NCBI RefSeq assembly: GCF_055900595.2
Contig: NZ_CM148325.1
Length of the DNA: 64,000 bases
Strand: one strand, 5' to 3'
Under the pieces are notes generated by a model. It was not told the origin of the DNA. It saw only the letters and a program-made list of their open reading frames with translations, and did no database searches. The position numbers and the translations under genes were made by a program. Below, in pieces: positions 1,560 to 52,332 of this stretch; position 1 is the first letter of the stretch; each line of letters opens with the position of its first letter.

Positions 1560-2452
1560 TGCTAAGCGAGGAAACGTCCGTCGTACGCCCACCAAAACAA
1601 ACGCGATTTAACGGTGCAAAACTGGTATGGATGCTGAAAGGCAGTCCGCTCACCGTGACCGGCGCAGTCATCATTGTATTAATGCTACTGATGATGATTT
1701 TTTCACCGTGGCTGGCGACGCATGATCCCAACGCCATTGATTTAACTGCCCGCCTTTTGCCGCCTTCTGCGGCGCACTGGTTTGGCACCGATGAAGTGGG
1801 ACGCGATCTGTTTAGCCGCGTACTGGTCGGCAGTCAGCAATCAATTCTCGCCGGATTAGTGGTGGTCGCCATTGCGGGTATGATGGGTTCGCTACTCGGG
1901 TGTCTATCCGGTGTGCTTGGCGGCCGCGCAGACGCGATCATCATGCGCATCATGGACATTATGCTGTCGATTCCTTCGCTGGTGCTGACAATGGCGCTGG
2001 CTGCCGCACTTGGACCGAGTTTGTTTAACGCCATGCTGGCGATTGCTATCGTGCGTATCCCGTTTTATGTGCGCCTGGCGCGGGGGCAAACATTAGTTGT
2101 TCGCCAGTACACTTACGTTCAGGCGGCGAAAACCTTTGGTGCGTCGCGTTGGCATCTGATCAACTGGCATATTTTACGTAACTCCCTGCCGCCGCTGATT
2201 GTGCAGGCATCGCTGGATATTGGTAGCGCGATTTTAATGGCCGCCACGTTGGGATTTATTGGCCTGGGTGCTCAACAACCGAGTGCTGAATGGGGGGCGA
2301 TGGTGGCGAATGGCCGCAACTATGTGCTCGATCAATGGTGGTATTGCGCATTTCCGGGGGCAGCGATTTTGCTTACCGCCGTCGGGTTCAATCTCTTTGG
2401 TGATGGTATTCGCGATCTGCTTGACCCGAAAGCAGGAGGAAAGCAGTCATGA
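1556..2452 (+). CDS. ddpC: D,D-dipeptide ABC transporter permease
   Basis: 298-aa membrane protein of DppC type. 4-bp overlap with ddpB indicates translational coupling. Confidence 0.9.
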   Translation: MMLSEETSVVRPPKQTRFNGAKLVWMLKGSPLTVTGAVIIVLMLLMMIFSPWLATHDPNAIDLTARLLPPSAAHWFGTDEVGRDLFSRVLVGSQQSILAGLVVVAIAGMMGSLLGCLSGVLGGRADAIIMRIMDIMLSIPSLVLTMALAAALGPSLFNAMLAIAIVRIPFYVRLARGQTLVVRQYTYVQAAKTFGASRWHLINWHILRNSLPPLIVQASLDIGSAILMAATLGFIGLGAQQPSAEWGAMVANGRNYVLDQWWYCAFPGAAILLTAVGFNLFGDGIRDLLDPKAGGKQS

Positions 2453-3435
2453 CCCAACCCGTTCTGGACATTCAACAGCTGCATTTGAGTTTCTCCGGTT
2501 TTAACGGCGACGTTCACGCGCTCAACAATGTGTCATTGAAAATCAACCGCGGTGAAATTGTCGGTCTGGTGGGAGAATCCGGCTCGGGTAAATCAGTCAC
2601 TGCAATGTTGATTATGCGTCTGTTACCGACGGGTAGTTATTGCGTACATCGGGGACATATTTCACTGCTGGGAGAAGATGCTCTTAACGCTCGGGAAAAA
2701 CAGCTTCGTCAGTGGCGCGGCGCACGAGTGGCGATGATCTTTCAGGAACCGATGACCGCCCTAAATCCGACACGTCGAATAGGTCTTCAGATGATGGACG
2801 TGATCCGCCATCATCAACCAATAAGTCGTAGGGAAGCCAGAGCTAAAGCGATTGCCCTGCTGGAAGAGATGCAAATCCCGGATGCCGTGGAAGTTATGTC
2901 GCGCTATCCGTTTGAGCTTTCAGGTGGTATGCGCCAGCGGGTAATGATTGCGCTGGCATTCTCCTGCGAGCCGCAATTGATTATTGCCGACGAACCGACT
3001 ACGGCGCTGGACGTCACGGTACAGTTGCAGGTACTGCGTCTGCTTAAACATAAAGCCCGCGCCAGTGGAACTGCGGTACTGTTCATCAGCCATGATATGG
3101 CCGTGGTGTCGCAACTGTGCGATAGCGTTTACGTGATGTATGCCGGAAGCGTGATCGAGAGCGGCATGACGGCAGACGTTATCCATCATCCCCAGCATCC
3201 GTATACCATTGGTTTGCTGCAATGCGCACCGGAACATGGAATACCACGCCAGCCATTACCCGCCATTCCAGGGACGGTACCAAACCTCACCCATTTGCCT
3301 GACGGCTGCGCTTTTCGCGATCGTTGCTATGCGGCAGGTACACAGTGTGAAAACGTCCCGGCGCTGACAGCGTGTGGTGACAACAACCACCGCTGCGCCT
3401 GTTGGTATCCTCAGCAGGAGGTCATTAGTGTCTGA
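2449..3435 (+). CDS. ddpD: D,D-dipeptide ABC transporter ATP-binding protein
   Basis: Walker A (GESGSGKS), ABC signature (LSGGMRQR) and Walker B (IIADEPTTALD) are present in the translation. Confidence 0.9.
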   Translation: MTQPVLDIQQLHLSFSGFNGDVHALNNVSLKINRGEIVGLVGESGSGKSVTAMLIMRLLPTGSYCVHRGHISLLGEDALNAREKQLRQWRGARVAMIFQEPMTALNPTRRIGLQMMDVIRHHQPISRREARAKAIALLEEMQIPDAVEVMSRYPFELSGGMRQRVMIALAFSCEPQLIIADEPTTALDVTVQLQVLRLLKHKARASGTAVLFISHDMAVVSQLCDSVYVMYAGSVIESGMTADVIHHPQHPYTIGLLQCAPEHGIPRQPLPAIPGTVPNLTHLPDGCAFRDRCYAAGTQCENVPALTACGDNNHRCACWYPQQEVISV

Positions 3436-4354
3436 CACGTTATTAACGTTACGCGACGTCCATATCAATTTCCCGGCCCGAAAAAACTGGCTTGGTAAAA
3501 CTACGGAACATGTTCATGCCATCAATGGTATTGATTTACAGATCCGTCGTGGTGAAACCTTAGGGATCGTCGGTGAGTCAGGCTGCGGCAAAAGCACCCT
3601 CGCACAGCTTTTAATGGGTATGCTGCAACCGAGCCACGGGCAGTACATCCGTTCAGGATCACAACGCATTATGCAGATGGTGTTTCAGGACCCGCTCTCT
3701 TCGCTTAATCCGCGCTTACCGGTGTGGCGCATCATCACGGAACCGCTCTGGATTGCTAAGCGTAGTAGTGAACAACAGCGGCGAGCGTTGGCAGAGGAGC
3801 TGGCTGTGCAGGTGGGTATTCGTCCGGAGTATCTCGACCGCTTGCCTCATGCGTTCTCAGGCGGGCAGCGGCAACGTATCGCCATTGCCAGAGCACTCTC
3901 TTCGCAGCCTGACGTGATTGTGCTTGATGAACCCACCTCGGCGCTGGATATCTCCGTCCAGGCGCAGATCCTCAATTTACTGGTAACGCTACAGGAAAAT
4001 CGCGGGCTGACTTATGTGCTGATTTCACACAATGTCTCGGTGATTCGTCATATGAGCGATCGGGTAGCGGTGATGTATCTCGGACAGATTGTGGAACTGG
4101 GCGACGCGCAGCAGGTGCTCTCTACTCCGGCACATCCATACACCCGATTATTGCTGGATTCCCTGCCCGCCATTGATAAACCGCTGGAGGAAGAATGGGC
4201 ATTGCGTAAAACGGAACTACCAGGAAACCGCACGTTGCCGCCGGGCTGTTTTTTCCGCGAACGTTGCCCCCTGGCAACCAGCGGATGTGAAGTTCGGCAA
4301 TCATTCACGACGCGGGAGGACGGACGTGAGATCAGGTGCTGGCGGGCGCTGTAG
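3428..4354 (+). CDS. ddpF: D,D-dipeptide ABC transporter ATP-binding protein
   Basis: Walker A (GESGCGKST), signature (FSGGQRQR) and Walker B (LDEPTSALD) are present. Start placed at the GTG overlapping the ddpD stop (gtgtctga), giving 308 aa; the track ORF begins further upstream inside ddpD. Confidence 0.85.
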   Translation: MSDTLLTLRDVHINFPARKNWLGKTTEHVHAINGIDLQIRRGETLGIVGESGCGKSTLAQLLMGMLQPSHGQYIRSGSQRIMQMVFQDPLSSLNPRLPVWRIITEPLWIAKRSSEQQRRALAEELAVQVGIRPEYLDRLPHAFSGGQRQRIAIARALSSQPDVIVLDEPTSALDISVQAQILNLLVTLQENRGLTYVLISHNVSVIRHMSDRVAVMYLGQIVELGDAQQVLSTPAHPYTRLLLDSLPAIDKPLEEEWALRKTELPGNRTLPPGCFFRERCPLATSGCEVRQSFTTREDGREIRCWRAL

Positions 4355-32739: not shown

Positions 32740-35700
32740 TTAAAATCTTACATAATCACTAAATATATCTCTAAATTCATCAAGTTCACTTTGAGTTGGT
32801 CTTTCCCATCGGTCAGTATTTCTATTCATTCGATGTTGGATATTTTTCCTAGAGATATCCCTCATAGATGTGACAATTTCAGAACCATCTTTTTCAATTA
32901 TATGTGCTCTGCCATTTGGTCCCAGTACAACCCACCGCCCATCTGATTGCTTTAATATATCGCTAGAACGCGCATTTTGAAGATCATTAATAACAGCACC
33001 AATAGGTCGACCTTCACGATGCCGTTGTAAAGCATGACTACTTTTCTTCAAAGTAGCACACATCTGTCCCAACGGATCGATCCAACTTAATGGATTCGGT
33101 GCATATTGATAGAGATTCAGTCCCCCCGCCAGCCCTATCGGGTCCGTTACCATGAACCGCCCGACATCCGGATCATAGTACCTGTGCAGATTGTAATGCA
33201 GCCCTGTTTCCCTGTCGAGGTACTGTCCCTGGTAGCGCAGGTTCTGCTCCACCCCGCCGTGGTCCTTCTCCTGTATCGTGTTACCCCAGACCTGATACCC
33301 CGTCTCCCACACGATTTTCCCGTCACTGTCCGTCATCTCTTCCGGCGCACCGTTCACATCCGTGTGAAAATACAGTATCCGGTTCGGTCCCTCTTTGCCC
33401 GCCTTATCCACCCGCGCCAGCGGTTCATAACTCCCCTGGTCACTGTAGATATACAGGCTGCCTGTTCCCTCCGGCCTGCTCTCCTGCGCCAGCCGCATTC
33501 CGTCCCATAAAAATGTCGTCCGGTTATACGGTTTACCGTCAGGGCTGATGTGCTGTTTTTCCGTCCGCCTCCCCAGCGCATCGTACACATACCGGTACGT
33601 TCCCCGCGCTGTCGTCACTTCCACCATCCGGTGTTCCGCATCATAACGGTAACTCTGCGCTCCGCTCCGGCCCTGCTTTTCCACCGTCCGGCCAAATTCG
33701 TCGTAACGGTAGTGCACACCACGGTAAGACATCAGCCGGTTGAACGGCACAACGCTGTTTTCTGCCGTGGCCCTTTCCCCCGCACGCCGCCCCAGCAGGT
33801 TTCCCGCCGCGTCGTACTGCCAGCTCGCCAGATACCCCTCATCCTCCGAGCGGCACGCCGTGATGCGCCCCGTGGGGTCGTAGAAGTAATCCGTTTCCCC
33901 CCGCCGGCTGTGCCGCGTCTTCAGCAGTTCATCCTCGCCGCTGTAGCTGTACTGCCGGTCCGTGAACGTCTCCGGTACCACCCCGCGCATCCCGCTGTAT
34001 GTCTCCCTGCGCTTCAGCCGCCCGGCGGTGTCGTAAAGCTGCCGCGTGCTCAGTCGCCCCTGACTTCTGAGCACCTCCCGGTGCAGGGCGTCACGTGTGA
34101 ACTCGCTGATGACCTCCCGGTCCAGATTTATCTGCTGGAGATGGCCGCTGCCGTAGTACAGATGGCGCTGCGTTCTGCCGTCCGGAAAGGTGGTGGCTGT
34201 CCGGTTGCCCAGTTCATCGTACTGATGGGTCAGGACGCCCTGCGCCGTCTCCTCGGTCAGCATCCGCCCCAGTCTGTCGTAACTGAAGCGGATAACTTCC
34301 GGCGCGTCAGTTTCGTGCCGCTGGCGGCGGATTTCCAGTAGCTGGTCTGCCGCATCATGGACGTATTCCGTATGGCTATCGGCTGTCTCCTTTGCCGTGA
34401 GCCGGCCCGCCGCATCGCGCGCCAGCCGGTGACGGATTTCACCGCCCCGGTCCCCGGTGAACACCACTTCCGTGACCGCGTTCAGCGCGTTGTAACGGTA
34501 CGCCTGGCGGCAGCCGTCCGGATTTATCTGCTCCGCCAGACGGTCCAGCACATCATGGCGGAACCGGTAGCTTTCTCCGTTCTCGTTCGTGAGCGTGACC
34601 AGACGCCCGTAAGCATCGTACCCGAACGCCGTCCTGCGCCCCGTCGCGTCTGTCCGGCTGCGCACCCGGCCCTGCCCGTCCCGCTGCCAGCGCGTTATCC
34701 TCCCCATCGGGCTGGTGTACTTCACCAGCCTGCCCGCCGCGTCCGACTGGTAATTCACCGTGCGGCCGTCCGCCAGTATCACCTCCGTCAGATGACCGCT
34801 GTCGTCATACCCGTAGCGCGTGCTGTGGCTCTGCGCGTCTGTCATTCTGATAAGCCGCGTGCGTTCGTCGTAGAACCAGGCCGTCTGCGAGCCGGAACAG
34901 TCCGTGTGCCGCATGAGCTGCCCGTCTTCGTTCCACTGAAGGTATTTATTCCCCCCACGGGCATCGGTTATCTGCACCACCTGGCCGTGGCGGTCATACT
35001 GATACCGGGTGTTCTGCTGCAGCGGGTCGGTCACCGCAAGAAGATTGCCGCGTTCATCGTACTCACAGCACCAGCTGTTCCCCGCCGCGTCCACCTCCGT
35101 TTCCGGCTGGTGCCACACCGGGTGCCACTGTGTCTGTGCCACCCGCCCCAGCGGGTCGTGCGTCTCCGTGATATGCCCCTGCCGGTCATACACATAGCGC
35201 CATTTGCCGCCCTGCGCATCGCTCATTCCCAGTAACAGCCGTTCTTCGTCGCTCCAGCGGAACGTCGTCACCTGCCCGGCTTCGTCCTGGTACGCCGTCA
35301 CCTGGTTCTGCGCATCCCACTGATGATAACGCGTGCGCCCCAGCCCGTCCGTCACGCACAGCCTGCGTGCCGCCAGGCTCCACGCCAGCCGGTACTGTTC
35401 ACCGCTGTCCGTGTGGTGCCCCGTCACCCGCCACGCTGCGTCATCCGGGCCTTCATACCAGCCCCACTGGTAATAATACCCTTCGCCGCCCGGCTGGCGG
35501 TGCAGGGTCATGCAGTGGTTTTCGTCGTAAGCAAACTCACGCAGCAGGTGCCCCGTGCTGTCGTACACGCCGTTCAGGTCGCCGGCCTCGTCATAGCGGT
35601 AACGACGCAGCAGTAAAGGAGCCGTCTCAGGGAAATGCTGATAAATCTGTGTCACCCGCCGGGGATGCGCCGCCAGTTCATAATGCAGACGAATGCACGG

Positions 35701-37371
35701 ACGCTGCTGTTCACCGCTGATTTGCGTGATGCGCCCCAGCTCGTCGTAGTACAGATTCAGACAGTTGCTGTTGCGGTCGCCCAGCATTTTCAGCCGCTGG
35801 CGCTGCGGGTGATGCGGGTCGGCTTCAAACAGAAAAAACTGCCCGTCATCGCTGCTGATAAGCCAGTGCCCCTGCTCACCCCGCCGTACTGCCAGTCCTT
35901 CGCCGGGGCTGTAAAACCCGCTCCCCGGCAGCACGGCCTCCATATCCAGGCGTCGTCCCATGCCCGACACAAAGGTCATACAGTTTTCGTCAGCAGTACC
36001 CGGCGTGCGCTCGAGGCTGACTTCATACATCACGCTCCAGCCCTGCCCGAACATCCCTTCCGTGCGGTCGTCACGACTGCTGTACACGCGCTGCCAGTCC
36101 AGCGGAAAGTGGCCCGGCAGACTGAAATCGAAGTCATCGTCATCCGCCAGATATTTGGCTCCGGTGGCGGCATTGACCGGATGCGGAAGGGCACTGATGG
36201 CCTTCTGCGTCATCACCCCCATCCCGACACTGGCAGCAAAACAGGCGATTTTAGAAAGCATTTTGCCCGGGCGAAGAAACATCAGCGCCACGGTTGCCAC
36301 CAGGGTTATCTGCGACCTGCCGCTTCTGATATCCCTGACCACCAGTAACGGACCGCCAATGCGGACATCCGGTGACAAAAACGCCCCGTTCCCCGGCTCA
36401 TTCACCACCCTGGCCTCGCAGGTACAGCGTGCCCCGCTGCGTGCCGCCGGCTGGCTGTTGATACGCACATCCCGCGCGCCTTCCGCGATATATTCCGCTG
36501 CGGGCGGTTCATCATCGCCTTTGAACAGATTACTGATGCTGCCAATAACCGCATTCACTCCCTGAAAGGCGGTTTCCAGCATACCGCCCGGACTCAACAG
36601 GTTAAGGGCCGTTCCCAGGGGGTCATCCAGAAAGGCGGCTTTTTTTTGTGCGAGAAACTGCGTCAGTGAGGAGGGATGTTTATGGCAGTCGATTTTATCG
36701 TCAGGGGTCGGGGTGGAGCCCGGGGCCGCACTGGCCACGGTGGGCTGCCATAGTTCCGACACAAAATGTGTCACGCCATCCACCATTTCAGAACGCCCTT
36801 CTTCCGTACTGAGCTGGTCGTGCAGCGCCCGGGACATCAGCACAGGCCCTGTCACCGGGTTAACCGCCAGGGCTATGGCCCCCGCCATTTCCAGATATTC
36901 CCCGGCCACATCCAGAAACGTTCTGGCATCCTCCTGACGCTGCGCTTCTTCCTGTTCCGCCTTCGCCTTCGCCTGCGCCTCCTGCGCCTCAATGTCCTGC
37001 CGTGATGCCGCAGTCGCCGCGGCCCGCGCGGCAGGTTTGCTGTTGATCCATGTGTCGCCAGAGCCGGTGAGGATGTAACCTTCAATCTGAGGCGGGAAAA
37101 GCCAGTTCGCCAGTTGCTCACTTTCCCTACTGATTCGGTCATTCCAGCCCTGATACGACATAAATACCGCTGTTGCTATACCGATCGCTAAAATGGTTGA
37201 GCAGCCCAGCGTTGCCACTTCAACTCCGCCCAGCGCCGCCATGGTTCCGACAACCAGAACATCCACCAGGGCTGTGGCGGCAACCTCTACAACTGCCCCC
37301 AGCACATCTGCTATAAACGACGTATGCAGCAGGGCATCACCCTGCCTTGCTGCCCAGAATGCCTCTTCCAT
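32740..37371 (-). CDS. full-length Rhs polymorphic toxin with N-terminal prePAAR motif, TM helices and PAAR domain (T6SS cargo effector)
   Basis: 1543-aa ORF. N-terminus has AARQGDALLH (prePAAR AARxxDxxxH) followed by hydrophobic helices, then a PAAR-like region (VRINSQPAARSGARCTCEARVVNEPGNG). Long YD-repeat core, conserved core end YAPNPLSWIDPLGQ, and a roughly 108-aa C-terminal tip of unknown activity. Confidence 0.85.
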   Translation of the reverse strand: MEEAFWAARQGDALLHTSFIADVLGAVVEVAATALVDVLVVGTMAALGGVEVATLGCSTILAIGIATAVFMSYQGWNDRISRESEQLANWLFPPQIEGYILTGSGDTWINSKPAARAAATAASRQDIEAQEAQAKAKAEQEEAQRQEDARTFLDVAGEYLEMAGAIALAVNPVTGPVLMSRALHDQLSTEEGRSEMVDGVTHFVSELWQPTVASAAPGSTPTPDDKIDCHKHPSSLTQFLAQKKAAFLDDPLGTALNLLSPGGMLETAFQGVNAVIGSISNLFKGDDEPPAAEYIAEGARDVRINSQPAARSGARCTCEARVVNEPGNGAFLSPDVRIGGPLLVVRDIRSGRSQITLVATVALMFLRPGKMLSKIACFAASVGMGVMTQKAISALPHPVNAATGAKYLADDDDFDFSLPGHFPLDWQRVYSSRDDRTEGMFGQGWSVMYEVSLERTPGTADENCMTFVSGMGRRLDMEAVLPGSGFYSPGEGLAVRRGEQGHWLISSDDGQFFLFEADPHHPQRQRLKMLGDRNSNCLNLYYDELGRITQISGEQQRPCIRLHYELAAHPRRVTQIYQHFPETAPLLLRRYRYDEAGDLNGVYDSTGHLLREFAYDENHCMTLHRQPGGEGYYYQWGWYEGPDDAAWRVTGHHTDSGEQYRLAWSLAARRLCVTDGLGRTRYHQWDAQNQVTAYQDEAGQVTTFRWSDEERLLLGMSDAQGGKWRYVYDRQGHITETHDPLGRVAQTQWHPVWHQPETEVDAAGNSWCCEYDERGNLLAVTDPLQQNTRYQYDRHGQVVQITDARGGNKYLQWNEDGQLMRHTDCSGSQTAWFYDERTRLIRMTDAQSHSTRYGYDDSGHLTEVILADGRTVNYQSDAAGRLVKYTSPMGRITRWQRDGQGRVRSRTDATGRRTAFGYDAYGRLVTLTNENGESYRFRHDVLDRLAEQINPDGCRQAYRYNALNAVTEVVFTGDRGGEIRHRLARDAAGRLTAKETADSHTEYVHDAADQLLEIRRQRHETDAPEVIRFSYDRLGRMLTEETAQGVLTHQYDELGNRTATTFPDGRTQRHLYYGSGHLQQINLDREVISEFTRDALHREVLRSQGRLSTRQLYDTAGRLKRRETYSGMRGVVPETFTDRQYSYSGEDELLKTRHSRRGETDYFYDPTGRITACRSEDEGYLASWQYDAAGNLLGRRAGERATAENSVVPFNRLMSYRGVHYRYDEFGRTVEKQGRSGAQSYRYDAEHRMVEVTTARGTYRYVYDALGRRTEKQHISPDGKPYNRTTFLWDGMRLAQESRPEGTGSLYIYSDQGSYEPLARVDKAGKEGPNRILYFHTDVNGAPEEMTDSDGKIVWETGYQVWGNTIQEKDHGGVEQNLRYQGQYLDRETGLHYNLHRYYDPDVGRFMVTDPIGLAGGLNLYQYAPNPLSWIDPLGQMCATLKKSSHALQRHREGRPIGAVINDLQNARSSDILKQSDGRWVVLGPNGRAHIIEKDGSEIVTSMRDISRKNIQHRMNRNTDRWERPTQSELDEFRDIFSDYVRF

Positions 37372-37389
37372 GTCCCGTTCCCTGTGTGA

Positions 37390-37842
37390 TTAATTCGTCC
37401 CGGCTTCCTGCCGTATCCTGAAGCGCAGATTCTTTTTAATTTCAGCCCAGCGCGTCATATCTGCCGGGGTCAGCGGTGTGGTTCTGGCGTAGGTGAAGGC
37501 CATCATGACCCGCTCACCCGGCAACACAAATGCCACCTGACACTGGTACACCTGCTCGTTACCCCGGAGAAACTGACTCTGTATTTCCAGCCCTTCTTCA
37601 CCGTCATTAATCCCTACCCGTGTTACCTGAACGGGCGTGTAGTGAAGATCCTTTACCTGTTTCTCCAGTTTTTTCATTTGCTGTTCAATCTGGGAGGCTA
37701 ATTCGTCTCCTTCCTGCATCTGGCCCCGGCTGATAATGAGTGCAGCGTCGGGATCGCTGAGACGCAGCATATTAATCGTACTGTCCTGAATAATATTCCC
37801 GGGGAAAGTTACAACAGTTTCATTGAGATAATACTCCGTCAT
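37390..37842 (-). CDS. DUF1795 / Eag-family effector-associated chaperone
   Basis: 150-aa ORF between vgrG and the prePAAR-Rhs gene. Size and position match Eag chaperones that stabilise prePAAR-effector TM helices; assignment is by context and size, not alignment. Confidence 0.6.
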   Translation of the reverse strand: MTEYYLNETVVTFPGNIIQDSTINMLRLSDPDAALIISRGQMQEGDELASQIEQQMKKLEKQVKDLHYTPVQVTRVGINDGEEGLEIQSQFLRGNEQVYQCQVAFVLPGERVMMAFTYARTTPLTPADMTRWAEIKKNLRFRIRQEAGTN

Positions 37843-37892
37843 AATGGTATGAGTCCTTGTTAATTAATAAATTATTTAATGATGGTTTTTAT

Positions 37893-39887
37893 TTATTTTT
37901 TAGTCATGAAGGTGACGTCTATTGCCAACTGAAGGGCTGTTTTCTCCGATGTTCCAGGCGGAGGTATATCTGCCGCTCTGTCATTCATATTTAAATCAAG
38001 CTGCCCTGATTGTGTATTTATCTTTCCATTTTCCGTTGCGGTAATATTAAAATTCTTACAGGTTATATTAAATATTCCGTCACTGGTCATTTGCAGGATA
38101 GTTTCTCCGCAGCTAAGAATAATGGAATCTCCCGCAGCAAGGCGTAAATTCTGTACGGCCTGAATCGTTTTATTTCGTCCGGCAAGGGAGGTATCATCCG
38201 TCTGGACTGTTAGAGAACGTTTCTCACCAATAATCGCAGTTTCTGTTTTATCAATGACTTTAAGGCGATTATTGCCCACCCAGTGGCTTTCATTATTATT
38301 TACTTCAATGCGTTGATCTTTCTCGGCATGCAACCAGATTTCTTCTCCGCCAGTTTTATCCTCAAAACGCAAGGCGTTAGCATTGGTCGGGCCGCCGCCG
38401 ATAGTGTGGCTGTAAAACCCGCTTTGCGTCGCTGCGCCCGGTAGTCCCCACGGTGGCATGGTGTCCTGATTGTAGGTACGCCCAACGATTATCGGTAAAT
38501 CCGGATCACCGTTTTTGAAATCCACCAGTACTTCCTGACCAATGCGCGGGATCTGAATGCCACCGAATCCTTTACCCGCCCACGGATAACTGACACGGAC
38601 CCAGCAGGAACTGTTTTCATCATTCTTACCGTAACGATCCCAGCCAAACTGAACTTTCACCCGGCCATATTTATCTGTCCAGATTTCCTGTCCCGTCGGG
38701 CCGGTCACGATGGCGCTCTGCGGGCCTTTAGTATGGGGTTTGCTCAGGGTTCGCTGCGGGCGGTAAACTTCGCTGGTGGGATGCAGTTCAAAGCTGGTTG
38801 AGTAAGAGAAATGCTGCTCCTGGCCGCTGTGTTGCGCATTGTCCTGTATAAATAGCGTGGTCTGAACCAGCAGATATTCCCGGTTCACTTCGGCTGTCGG
38901 ATAGTTTTCCAGGGTGAAGGTAAAACCTGTCATCAGGGTACGAATATTGCCGCTGCCCTGTACCCGACTACCGGGGCTACACTGTTCTTCCATGCGGATG
39001 CGTGTCAGCATTTCACCTTCACTCTTTGTGAAGTAGTCTCCCGGCCATTCGTAGTGCTCATATTCAGCAAGGCCAGTTTCACGCGGATTAGCCACGGTGC
39101 TCTTGAGCAGTGAACGCGGCTTCATAAAGTCGAAATCATTTAGTACCCACTGTCCGCTGCGCAGGCTTTCATTTGCTGTGATGGTATGGATAAATTCCTT
39201 GTCCAGTTTCAGCCCTTTCTGGTAATAACACACCAGTGGCGAATCTGCGCACGCCTTGTGGACATTAATGGCATCAGCCAGCACTAACGTGTGACTGTTC
39301 TCGTTGTGCTCAAACCACCAGTAGATACCCCACTCCTGCATCAGGCGCTGAATAAAATCGAAATCTGTTTCACCGTACTGCACCTGCCAGGCGCGAGTCG
39401 GATAATTTTCCACCAGTCGTTTTTCCACTGGCCAGGGGTACTCATCCAGTACCTCATCCAGGATCTCCACCACGTTTTTATTTTGAAACGCTTTGTAGTC
39501 ACTAGTGTGGGTCAGTATTTTTAACCACGGTTCAATCCGCAGTTCATACACCACCGAACGTCCTTGATGACCAGCCACGCGTGCCGCCGTCACCAGCCCG
39601 CTGATATAACGTTTTCCGCCGCCATCCAATTCGATATTGACGCACAGATCTTTGCCCACCATCGGTTTGAGCTGCAGGTTGGCTGCGGGGGAAACATAGC
39701 CCAGGTTCAGGATGTCAGGAGTTTTTAATTTAATAGAATAAGTAAATAGTTCCCCTACTGTTTCTGTCCCCCCTAAGCTTGCAAACAGTAACATTCCATC
39801 AGGAACTGCGCTGCCGCTCAAAGTCACGTTATGTGTACCCGATCCAGTTAGTGCGCCGGATGGATAATCTGTAGCTGCAAAACTCAT
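37893..39887 (-). CDS. vgrG: type VI secretion system spike protein VgrG
   Basis: 664-aa ORF with gp27/gp5-like features (e.g. [63 protein letters not shown], beta-helical repeats). Directly upstream of eag-rhs. The N-terminus is atypical; start taken as the first ATG after the upstream stop. Confidence 0.85.
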
Positions 39888-40242
39888 AATTAATCCTTTT
39901 AACTAGAAATGGCTAAGTGCTAATAAGAAATCTTACAGAGAATAAAATATGCAATATATTCGTAGCTGGCATAAAACATCTCAATACTTATGCGTGCTAC
40001 TGAAGATACTATCAACCATATATGCCTTGAAGAATGCACCATCATGTTAACCTGGTGGAAACATTCACCTAAAGTACATTAATAAAACCAATAAAATTAT
40101 TTAATCTGTTATTTGATATGATTATCATCAAATCTTAAAATACGTTCCCCGGTTCTAATTATGCTAAAACCATAATATTCTTTTGTACTTCCGGAAGAGA
40201 GCATATATTTCCCGATATACATAACATCTGAAGATAGCTCAC

Positions 40243-49063: not shown

Positions 49064-49579
49064 ATGTCCATCCGTTTTGCCCGCAAAGCCGACTGTGCTG
49101 CCATTGCGGAAATTTATAACCACGCCGTGTTGTATACGGCGGCTATCTGGAATGACCAAACGGTGGATGCAGATAACCGCATTGCCTGGTTTGAAGCGCG
49201 GACCATAGCAGGTTATCCGGTGCTGGTGAGTGAAGAAGATGGCGTAGTGACGGGATATGCCTCGTTTGGCGACTGGCGTAGTTTCGATGGTTTTCGCCAT
49301 ACCGTGGAGCATTCGGTTTATGTCCATCCTGATCATCAGGGCAAAGGTCTTGGGCGTAAATTGTTAAGCCGATTGATTGATGAAGCGCGGGATTGCGGGA
49401 AGCATGTTATGGTCGCCGGGATCGAATCGCAAAATCAGGCTTCGCTGCATCTCCACCAGTCGCTGGGATTTGTCATCACCGCACAAATGCCGCAGGTGGG
49501 CACTAAATTTGGGCGCTGGCTGGATCTGACATTTATGCAGTTGCAACTCGACGAACGCAGTGAACCGGACGCAATCTGA
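49064..49579 (+). CDS. mnaT: GNAT-family L-amino acid N-acyltransferase
   Basis: 171-aa product from MSIRFARKADCAAIAEIYNH with a GNAT acetyl-CoA motif (HQGKGLGRKLL). Internal start chosen within the longer track ORF. Confidence 0.85.
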   Translation: MSIRFARKADCAAIAEIYNHAVLYTAAIWNDQTVDADNRIAWFEARTIAGYPVLVSEEDGVVTGYASFGDWRSFDGFRHTVEHSVYVHPDHQGKGLGRKLLSRLIDEARDCGKHVMVAGIESQNQASLHLHQSLGFVITAQMPQVGTKFGRWLDLTFMQLQLDERSEPDAI

Positions 49580-50028
49580 TGAATCAGTCGCTTACCCTTG
49601 CCTTTTTGATTGCCGCAGGGATTGGTCTGGTCGTCCAGAACACGCTAATGGTGCGCATCACCCAGACCTCCTCTACCATTCTCATCGCCATGTTGCTGAA
49701 CTCACTGGTAGGGATTGTGCTCTTTGTTGCTATTTTATGGTTTAAACAAGGCATGGCGGGGTTTGGCGAACTGGTGTCCAGCGTACGCTGGTGGACACTT
49801 ATACCCGGCTTGCTGGGATCTTTTTTTGTCTTCGCCAGTATCAGCGGATATCAGAATTTGGGAGCGGCGACAACTATTGCAGTACTGGTCGCCAGCCAGC
49901 TAATTGGCGGTCTGGTGCTGGATATCTTCCTCAGTCATGGCGTACCACTACGGGCGTTGATCGGCCCAATTTGTGGCGCAATTTTACTTGTGGTTGGTGC
50001 CTGGCTGGTGGCCAGGCGCACATTTTAA
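49579..50028 (+). CDS. ydcZ: DMT-like inner-membrane protein
   Basis: 149-aa hydrophobic ORF (4 TM-like segments), start overlapping the mnaT stop. Confidence 0.8.
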   Translation: MNQSLTLAFLIAAGIGLVVQNTLMVRITQTSSTILIAMLLNSLVGIVLFVAILWFKQGMAGFGELVSSVRWWTLIPGLLGSFFVFASISGYQNLGAATTIAVLVASQLIGGLVLDIFLSHGVPLRALIGPICGAILLVVGAWLVARRTF

Positions 50029-50262
50029 TCAGAGGATGGTGCCGCCTTTGGTTAACTGTTCGTGGCGCGCTTCCATATCTTCTTTATGCTTGCGACCGTG
50101 ATGGGCGATCGCTGTGCGCAGACGCTGCTGCTGGGTGTAGCGATCTTCCCGACTTAACTCCGCGTCATCGCTCAGGGCGATTAATAATTCGTTCATATGG
50201 GCAATGACGCTCTCTTCAATCGCGGCATCCACGCGCGTGATGACTTCATCCAGATGCGACAT
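50029..50262 (-). CDS. ydcY: small uncharacterised protein
   Basis: 77-aa ORF, charged and helical; assigned by synteny. Confidence 0.7.
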   Translation of the reverse strand: MSHLDEVITRVDAAIEESVIAHMNELLIALSDDAELSREDRYTQQQRLRTAIAHHGRKHKEDMEARHEQLTKGGTIL

Positions 50263-50347
50263 ACTTTCTCCTTAGCCACTTGTGAAATTTATCGATTCAT
50301 CCAAATGATATAAGTCTGCGTGGTGCCGTCAAGCCAGTGCGTAAGAT

Positions 50348-50521
50348 TTAAAACAGCGAAAACAACAGCGCCACCGGGAAACTCATCGGCCATGTTGCCC
50401 CCACCAGAAAGGCGCTTAAGAAACGGATGCGTTTCTTATCGTGAGAAAGAAACCAGGTGATAAGAAATGCGATTGCTGCCATAACCGCATAAAAAACAAG
50501 CATGTGTTGATAGAGAGACAT
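50348..50521 (-). CDS. ortT: small membrane toxin OrtT (TisB-like orphan toxin)
   Basis: 57-aa product MSLYQHMLVFYAVMAAIAFLITWFLSHDKKRIRFLSAFLVGATWPMSFPVALLFSLF, taken from an internal ATG of the 82-aa track ORF. Two hydrophobic helices. Confidence 0.75.
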   Translation of the reverse strand: MSLYQHMLVFYAVMAAIAFLITWFLSHDKKRIRFLSAFLVGATWPMSFPVALLFSLF

Positions 50522-50907
50522 GTACGGGCGTCCAGCCAGATGAATAAAACGCGCGCAAATATGCGTCATTTTTTGACGTGCATCAAGTTTTTTCACCAGT
50601 TTGAGAAAAAATCATCAAACAGCAACTTGCCCTTATCCATCTTCAGAATGAGTATTATTGCGGATTTTCTTAACCCGTACTATACACATAGGGGCAATGA
50701 TAAAAGGTGGCAAAAATGAATGTTTCCAGTAGAACTGTAGTACTGATAAATGTCTTTGCTGCTGTTGGTTTGTTTACTCTTATCTCTATGAGATTTGGCT
50801 GGTTTATTTGATGTAGTGATTTTGCACGCAGCACGTACTGTCAGAGAAATCAGTGCTCTGACAGTACGCAAGATCTTCTCATACTCTTACGATCTGCAAT
50901 ATTATCC

Positions 50908-52332
50908 TTAATGTTTAACCATGACGTGGCGGACGACGGTGTAATCCTCCAACCCATAAAGTGACATATCCTTGCCGTAACCAGAAAGTTTCTGTCCACC
51001 GTGCGGCATTTCACTAACCAGCATGAAATGGGTATTGACCCAGGTACAACCATATTGCAGCCGTGCGCTGACACGATGCGCCCTGCCCACATCTTTCGTC
51101 CATACCGAAGATGCAAGTCCGTACTGGCTGTCATTCGCCCAGTTCACCACCTGTTCTTCATTGTCAAAGGCCGTCACGCTCACCACCGGACCAAATACCT
51201 CTTTTTGCACGATGGCATCGTCCTGTAACGCGCCAGCCAGCAGCGTAGGCGCATAGTAATAGCCATTACCCTTGCGTTTTTCACCACCGGTGATCACTTT
51301 GATGTGCCCTGTCCCTTTCGCCTCTTCTACCGCCTTGCTGACACGTTCGAGATGTGCCAGCGAACTTAACGGTCCTAGCTCTGTGGACTCGTCATCCGGC
51401 GCACCAGATTTTAACGTTGCCACTGCAGCACCGAGTTTTTCTACCAGCGTATCGTAAATACCTTTTTGCGCGTAGATCCGACATGCCGCGGTACAATCCT
51501 GTCCGGCATTGTAATAGCCAAAAGTGCGAACACCTTCGACCACTGCTTCAATATCAGCATCATCAAAAACAATCACTGGCGCTTTGCCACCCAACTCCAT
51601 ATGAGTACGCTTAATAGACGGCGCTGTATGGCTGATGATGTGCTCGCCGGTGGCGATAGAGCCCGTCAGCGACACCATCCGCACTTTGGGATGTCCGGTC
51701 AGCGGATCGCCCACTGTTTTGCCTCTGCCAAACAGCACATTAATCACGCCAGCCGGGAAGATATCTTTCGCCAGTTCAGCCAGCTTCAACGCTGTCAGCG
51801 GGGTAATTTCTGATGGTTTAAGCACTACGCAGTTCCCTGCCGCCAGCGCCGGAGCCAGTTTCCACGCGGCCATCATCAGCGGATAATTCCACGGTGCGAT
51901 AGAAGCCACGACCCCCAACGGATCCCGACGGATCATTGAAGTATGACCTTCAAGGTATTCGCCGGCCGCCAGACCATTGAGGCAGCGCGCCGCGCCGGCG
52001 AAAAAGCGAAAGACATCGACAATCGCCGGAATTTCATCATTGAACGCACTATGCAGCGGTTTGCCACAATTACGGGACTCCAGTTCGGCAAAAACCTGAC
52101 CATTTTCTTCAATAACATCGGCCAGTTTCAGCAGGCATTCCGCACGCGCTTTCGGCGTGGTTTGCCCCCATTCGGCAAATGCTGCATCTGCCGCGCGAAC
52201 AGCAGCATCCACCTGCTCTGCGGATGCCTCGGCAATCTCCAGTAAAACGTCCCCCGTTGCCGGATTATAGACAGGCTGTTTTTCCCCTTCGCCGCTAACC
52301 AGTTCTCCGTTAATCAGTAACTTATGTTGCAT
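50908..52332 (-). CDS. patD: gamma-aminobutyraldehyde dehydrogenase (aldehyde dehydrogenase family)
   Basis: 474-aa ORF with ALDH motifs (catalytic Cys in [13 protein letters not shown], glutamate box ELGGKAP). Confidence 0.9.

Follow-up and report, generated by a model that had tools for sequence, protein, structure and literature searches.

ortT, a GhoT-family gene without an apparent antitoxin, and its chromosomal neighbourhood in Escherichia coli

Introduction

A 64-kb stretch of DNA (hereafter, the window) contains a small open reading frame (ORF) that a first-pass annotation had described as ortT, an intact, TisB-like orphan membrane toxin of 57 aa retained next to ydcY with no cognate antitoxin apparent. 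Such a locus raises the question of whether the gene is what it seems to be, to which family its product belongs and, if an antitoxin is indeed lacking, what keeps the toxin in check. The gene itself has little value as a discovery, as ortT was named and characterized in 2015 and automated annotation recognizes it in every E. coli genome. Its interest is that it cleanly illustrates how a member of a toxin family can be maintained in the core chromosome with no antitoxin.

The functional data on OrtT come from the work of Islam, Benedik and Wood (2015; PMC4344625) on the K-12 protein, which is identical to the one encoded here. Overproduction of OrtT stops growth, an effect abolished by an ATG>ACG change of the start codon, and lysed 99.99% of the cells; TEM revealed membrane damage and nucleoid condensation, ATP dropped 27-fold and persistence increased (PMC4344625). 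Deletion of ortT increased metabolism and allowed better growth in the presence of trimethoprim or sulfamethoxazole, and the ortT mRNA was induced 3-fold by trimethoprim, 4.6-fold by mupirocin, 89 +/- 80-fold by serine hydroxamate (a noisy value) and 2-fold by heat (PMC4344625). This evidence consists of plasmid overexpression and of modest deletion phenotypes in K-12, and the native OrtT protein has never been detected (PMC4344625). In later screens, ortT was recovered among blue-light-protective genes and, in AIEC, among the toxin genes induced in macrophages, and a plasmid-borne homologue from Pantoea affects fitness in contaminated groundwater. The first-pass annotation was thus right to call ortT a known feature and, given the 100% identity to the K-12 protein, the OrtT encoded in the window is predicted to be toxic and membrane-damaging as well.

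Identity and coding sequence of ortT

The ORF runs on the minus strand from an ATG at 50521 to a TAA ending at 50348 (Table 1) and encodes the protein MSLYQHMLVFYAVMAAIAFLITWFLSHDKKRIRFLSAFLVGATWPMSFPVALLFSLF, which is 100% identical to OrtT/YdcX of K-12 MG1655 (b1445) and matches the PF10753 profile (Toxin_GhoT_OrtT) over positions 1-55 of 55 (96.9 bits, with a cut-off of 22.1; E = 8e-28). The alignment with the K-12 gene, which had been proposed as a check, therefore bears out both the identification and the 57 intact codons. At the DNA level, identity to K-12 is 99%, with two base differences in 458 nt of gene and flanks, namely, a synonymous TCA>TCG change in codon 55 (window position 50357), the only one within the coding sequence, and a change 8 nt beyond the stop codon, in the intergenic DNA 3′ of the gene (window position 50340). 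The former yields a third GCU in ortT, compared to two in K-12; GCU is the cleavage triplet preferred by MqsR according to Islam et al. (PMC4344625), and the extra copy is probably inconsequential.

A 901-bp query containing ortT matched 5415 of the 5426 complete E. coli genomes (with coverage of at least 80% in 5405) and PGAP calls ortT in a genome that shares 99.93% identity with window positions 14001-64000, so that ortT is not a chance ORF. The locus is the ordinary E. coli ortT, a real and previously characterized gene. The same count bears on the statement that ortT is 'retained': its presence is confirmed, but the word implies too much for a gene that is essentially core.

The mechanical ORF list contains, in the same frame, an 82-aa ORF starting from a GTG at 50596, and we considered whether this longer form could be the true product. 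Upstream, the first in-frame stop codon is the TGA at 50614-50612, and many automated public gene calls are 77-97 aa long, but the Pfam model spans only residues 29-82 of the extended protein, conservation across genera begins sharply at the ortT ATG and the putative ortT promoter falls within the extension. Furthermore, curated annotations give 57 aa, and toxicity is lost upon the ATG>ACG change (PMC4344625). The 82-aa form was rejected on account of the Pfam coverage, the mutant phenotype and the start of conservation, and we consider it highly improbable.

Table 1. Coordinates of the ortT locus and of other features noted in the window (positions are those of the 64-kb window)
Feature	Position	Strand	Description and evidence
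ydcZ	49579-50028	+	
ydcY	50029-50262	minus	DUF2526, 77 aa; PF10735, E = 1.8e-46; 85 bp downstream of ortT
Putative ydcY promoter	50332..50305	minus	Sigma-70-like, TTGACG-16-TATCAT; promoter scan
ortT (ydcX) CDS	50348..50521	minus	57 aa + stop; ORF, K-12 identity, PF10753, PGAP 'orphan toxin OrtT' in the near-identical genome
ortT-yncL spacer	50522..50715	.	194-bp divergent intergenic control region; conserved blocks at both ends
ortT Shine-Dalgarno-like element	50531..50533	minus	GGA, 9 nt before the ATG; the sole one, very weak
Putative ortT promoter	50558..50586	minus	-35 TTGATG (50586-50581), 17-nt spacer, -10 CATATT (50563-50558)
Putative yncL -10 element	50680-50686	+	CTATACA, sigma-S-type; within the yncL-proximal conserved block
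yncL	50716..50811	+	31 aa; membrane protein of the stress response with a single TM segment; NCBIfam equivalog NF000537, E = 1.8e-20
patD	50908-52332	minus	
ydcS	55111-56255	minus	ABC transporter substrate-binding; two overlapping ORFs, 55809-56255 and 55111-55827
hicB, C-terminal fragment	57985-58221	minus	Between yncJ and ydcR
Type VI secretion effector cluster	~31230-39890	minus	Coordinates transferred from the NZ_CP098223.1 annotation and maybe a few bases off

Genomic context and distribution

The gene order around ortT (ydcZ, ydcY, ortT, yncL and patD) matches that of K-12 and of a dog isolate 99.93% identical to window positions 14001-64000; the K-12 locus shares the neighbours patD, yncL, ydcY, ydcZ and mnaT, as well as an identical 194-bp spacer upstream of ortT. 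As stated in the first-pass annotation, ortT lies next to ydcY, which follows it on the same strand and appears to have a promoter of its own. This adjacency was not found in any other genus examined. In Salmonella, Citrobacter and Intestinirhabdus, an srfB/Virul_Fac operon takes the place of ydcY beside ortT, and in Kosakonia, Buttiauxella, a third lineage and Pantoea, the neighbours are different again. ydcY is neither an antitoxin gene nor a conserved partner of ortT.

Across genera, it is yncL, not ydcY, that remains beside ortT. As in Escherichia, yncL was located by tblastn in divergent orientation upstream of ortT in Salmonella, Citrobacter and Intestinirhabdus, with a spacing of 175-194 bp among the four genera; no yncL is present at three more distant ortT loci (Kosakonia, Buttiauxella and the third lineage), with patD still nearby. 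The comparison thus points to yncL rather than ydcY as the neighbour of interest.

We found no phage copies of the ortT family, and on plasmids it is restricted to Pantoea megaplasmids of the non-mobilisable type and to pieces of chromosome mislabelled as plasmids. Given this distribution, ortT does not behave as a mobile addiction module, and in E. coli it is found at one conserved site. As a case of the mislabelled kind, the 33.7-kb E. coli 'plasmid' NZ_CP110997.1, typed as non-mobilisable, carries the chromosomal segment yncL-ortT-ydcY-ydcZ-mnaT-pqqU and probably represents a piece of the chromosome or a misassembly rather than an instance of plasmid-borne ortT.

Protein family and membrane topology

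The hydropathy profile of OrtT, computed over 17 residues at a time, peaks at 2.33 for stretches that begin at residues 8-9 and at 1.63 for the one that begins at residue 38, and the corresponding hydrophobic segments flank a basic loop, H27-D-K-K-R-I-R33. An AlphaFold2 model based on 12 members of the family contains helices at residues 3-27 and 29-56 (mean pLDDT 77), compared to the transmembrane (TM) segments 6-26 and 34-54 predicted by Islam et al. (PMC4344625). The first-pass annotation had made its claim depend on the presence of TM helices, and both hydropathy and AlphaFold2 yield two of them; going by the positive-inside rule, the loop between the two probably faces the cytoplasm. We found no solved structures for the GhoT/OrtT family, and NCBIfam is without an OrtT model, though YncL has one.

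Orthologues of OrtT in Salmonella, Citrobacter, Kosakonia, Buttiauxella and Intestinirhabdus share 81-91% identity with the E. coli protein. The invariant core of the alignment comprises W23-F24 and the C-terminal T43-W-P...P49-V-A-L...S55-L-F57. Residue 38 is F, V, I or A, with V, I or A found in Citrobacter, Buttiauxella and Intestinirhabdus. The F38R substitution lowers the toxicity of both OrtT and GhoT of E. coli; the residue is not conserved among orthologues, which puts the mechanistic weight of Phe38 in doubt. Two GhoT/OrtT-family paralogues lie close to each other at each of two loci, the Kosakonia locus (3001-3443) and another locus (2097-3216); the paralogues show 84% and 61-65% identity to OrtT and are accompanied by neither GhoS nor yncL.

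The likeness to TisB put forward in the first-pass annotation is not borne out as a statement on family. TisB is a small hydrophobic peptide of the inner membrane, induced by the SOS response, which reduces both the proton-motive force and ATP and favours persistence; it is a one-helix type I toxin with an antisense RNA antitoxin, IstR-1, and istR is annotated beside tisB. BLASTP produced no alignment between OrtT and K-12 TisB even at E<=100. TisB is 29 aa long and, by common description, forms one helix, as opposed to the 57 aa and two helices of OrtT, and whereas TisB is under the control of an antisense sRNA, no RNA partner was found for ortT. 'TisB-like' would be acceptable solely as a loose functional analogy, both being small toxins that cause the proton-motive force to dissipate.

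OrtT is a homologue of GhoT. The two proteins belong to PF10753 and are both 57 aa long; K-12 GhoT (b4559) aligns with OrtT without gaps over 57 residues at 63% identity (E = 8e-27), with the C-terminal helix being nearly identical, and both proteins damage the membrane and deplete ATP (PMC4344625). By contrast, the genetic settings differ. ghoT sits directly downstream of the antitoxin gene ghoS, the product of which cleaves the ghoT mRNA according to Islam et al. (PMC4344625), whereas there is no ghoS near ortT or elsewhere in the window. The deletion phenotypes differ as well, that of ghoT being linked to carbenicillin and that of ortT to trimethoprim and sulfamethoxazole (PMC4344625).

Search for an antitoxin

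With K-12 GhoS as the query, tblastn detected no homologue in the 64-kb window (best E = 0.27) and none beside seven orthologous ortT loci, compared to 1.5e-63 for the ghoST control locus. Nor was any protein partner conserved among the ortT loci across seven genera, a survey that covered Salmonella, Citrobacter, Kosakonia, Buttiauxella, Intestinirhabdus, a third yncL-less lineage and Pantoea. A small ORF downstream of the Pantoea ortT homologue was considered as a partner and dismissed as unrelated; its N-terminus looks like a signal peptide with a lipobox. On the RNA side, there was no Rfam match within 3 kb of ortT at E<=1, and neither the ortT leader (z = -0.65) nor the 3′ region (z = +1.28) folds into significant structure when compared with shuffled sequences; a structured 5′ leader that hides the start codon was rejected, the MFE being no better than that of the shuffles. 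No intrinsic terminator was detected between ortT and ydcY. In the published tests, OrtT was not neutralised by YdcY, by GhoS or by the intergenic regions on either side of the gene (UTR construct), and a genomic library with 2.9x coverage and 622-bp inserts yielded no antitoxin-bearing survivor clone (PMC4344625).

The absence of an apparent cognate antitoxin reported in the first-pass annotation is therefore upheld, and the orphan status of OrtT stands on the window, the orthologous loci, Rfam, folding and the published evidence. In terms of toxin-antitoxin types, ortT lacks the adjacent gene for a GhoS-type endoribonuclease that marks type V, and it shows neither the TisB homology nor the antisense or neighbouring sRNA of type I, an undescribed sRNA being formally possible. 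A concrete form of the latter would be a cis-antisense RNA ending at a plus-strand hairpin (50549-50566) followed by a T-run (to 50575), which the terminator scan lists antisense to the ortT leader. This type I-like reading is very unlikely and was rejected: the three terminator-like sites are within chance expectation (1.2 +/- 1.1 in shuffles), no plus-strand promoter was detected inside ortT and the hairpin is not kept in any of Salmonella, Citrobacter and Intestinirhabdus, where the conserved sequence reads as the ortT -10 and discriminator. In addition to the empty Rfam search, the flanking regions left toxicity unreduced (PMC4344625).

Control region and translation

The putative ortT promoter (Table 1) matches the sigma-70 consensus at 8 of 12 positions, slightly under the scanner threshold, hence its absence from the list of scanned promoters. 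Its -10 element is followed by a GC-rich stretch, TGCGCGCG, in the position of the discriminator, and transcription from it would start near 50549-50552. In the alignment of the spacers from Escherichia, Salmonella, Citrobacter and Intestinirhabdus, all four share TTG and GCATA-TT amid diverging sequence, and GCGCGCG follows the -10 in three of the four genera. The same region also reads CTTGATG-N14-ACGCATAT, which resembles the sigma-32 consensus.

The first-pass annotation proposed that the promoter region be checked for (p)ppGpp-responsive elements. To our knowledge, no dedicated cis-element of this kind has been defined; sensitivity to ppGpp/DksA follows the composition of the discriminator, GC-rich versions being typical of promoters that are inhibited rather than activated. 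The only relevant feature that we could identify is the discriminator, and it is GC-rich, which suggests that any effect of ppGpp on ortT would be indirect, exerted through sigma-S, sigma-H or sigma-E. We infer that the stringent induction of ortT is likely to proceed via competition among these sigma factors. Such indirect control fits with the strong genomic SELEX peak of the RpoS holoenzyme (intensity 28.5) assigned to the yncL<>ydcX spacer (PMC5493296), as well as with the predicted sigma-E and sigma-H promoters for ortT cited by Islam et al. (PMC4344625). The comparison points to the spacer, with its SELEX peak, conserved promoter-like elements and GC-rich discriminator, as the place to look for the way in which stringent conditions turn on ortT.

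Translation may be a further point of restraint. The predicted duplex of the Shine-Dalgarno (SD)-like element with the 3′ end of the 16S rRNA has an energy of -3.3 kcal/mol for ortT versus -9.1 for ydcY and -7.2 for yncL; orthologues carry AAGGA, AGGA or GGA at the same position. The weak SD may limit the translation of ortT.

At the other end of the spacer, the strongly conserved block proximal to yncL includes a candidate sigma-S-type -10 element (Table 1), and yncL is sigma-S dependent in Salmonella (PMC5437024). YncL depolarises the membrane and condenses the nucleoid (PMC12542507) and is cleaved by RseP in vivo. The class represented by YncL and YohP resembles OrtT in that it consists of small hydrophobic proteins induced by stress or in stationary phase, which depolarise the membrane, condense the nucleoid and lower metabolism, but differs in having a single TM segment, a length of ~30 aa, sublethal effects and no homology to OrtT. 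No functional link between YncL and OrtT has been reported in the literature examined. The UTR construct of Islam et al. extended 217 bp upstream of ortT, that is, over the spacer and ~23 bp of yncL (PMC4344625) and, accordingly, full-length YncL fell outside the published antitoxin tests.

Proposed mechanism and alternatives

We propose that OrtT is a 57-aa hydrophobic helical hairpin that would insert into the inner membrane and, when present in quantity, would damage it, leading to the collapse of the proton-motive force and ATP, slow growth and, possibly, lysis. OrtT is paralogous to GhoT, the type V toxin, but has no antitoxin of the GhoS type or any other, and would probably be restrained by its level of expression, set by a putative stress-dependent promoter in the spacer and a seemingly very weak ribosome-binding site. 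The inducers reported are heat and treatments that bring about amino-acid starvation or stringent conditions, namely, serine hydroxamate, mupirocin and trimethoprim (PMC4344625). We assign a probability of roughly 0.9 to this reading, in which OrtT is a two-helix paralogue of GhoT that damages the membrane in quantity, lacks an antitoxin and is checked by expression level.

A tentative alternative, possible but less probable than not, holds that OrtT is no dedicated toxin at all but a mild depolariser akin to YncL and YohP that slows metabolism, so that lysis would be an artefact of overexpression and an antitoxin would be unneeded. The gene is core, vertically inherited and non-mobile, it lacks a partner conserved across genera and its weak SD suggests low native levels of the protein, all of which would be expected under this alternative. 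The stress-responsive spacer is common to ortT and yncL, the product of which depolarises the membrane sublethally and condenses the nucleoid; nucleoid condensation was seen with OrtT too, and the ortT deletion phenotypes are those of a 'metabolic brake' (PMC4344625). Set against this are the clear paralogy of OrtT with GhoT, which does have a dedicated antitoxin, and the extent of lysis upon overproduction (PMC4344625). This alternative departs from the proposed mechanism more in emphasis than in the mechanism itself.

The constancy of yncL raises the further issue of whether OrtT is an orphan. We consider it unlikely that yncL and ortT constitute a back-to-back depolarising module with one spacer controlled by stress sigma factors, in which YncL would tune OrtT, either antagonising or potentiating it; were this so, OrtT would be no true orphan. 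We place this low because inherited synteny among close relatives accounts for the linkage and because ortT is found elsewhere without yncL. A related proposition, namely, that YncL or another factor modulates or antagonises OrtT in the membrane, appears quite improbable. It draws on the maintenance of the gene pair and its spacing in four genera while the flanks change, and on the limits of the published tests, in which the UTR construct lacked full-length yncL and the library was of modest coverage and insert size (PMC4344625). However, these four genera are close relatives, for which inherited synteny suffices as an explanation, and ortT persists without yncL in Kosakonia, Buttiauxella and the third lineage. 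Moreover, YncL itself depolarises the membrane, so that its effect would more likely be additive than protective, and the library yielded no clone that survived by virtue of an antitoxin (PMC4344625).

Other features of the window

Three further features of the window were recorded (Table 1). The type VI secretion effector cluster encompasses vgrG, a DcrB-related gene and a 4.6-kb RHS core protein gene with a small ORF downstream, along with an orphan RHS fragment, a gene annotated as 'putative toxin' and a SUKH-4 immunity gene. The ydcS gene, split into two overlapping ORFs, is a frameshift pseudogene and is flagged as such in the near-identical reference genome too. Finally, PGAP marks hicB as 'missing N-terminus' in the 99.93%-identical genome, no hicA is annotated between yncJ and ydcR, and the hicB remnant looks like what is left of a decayed HicAB toxin-antitoxin module.
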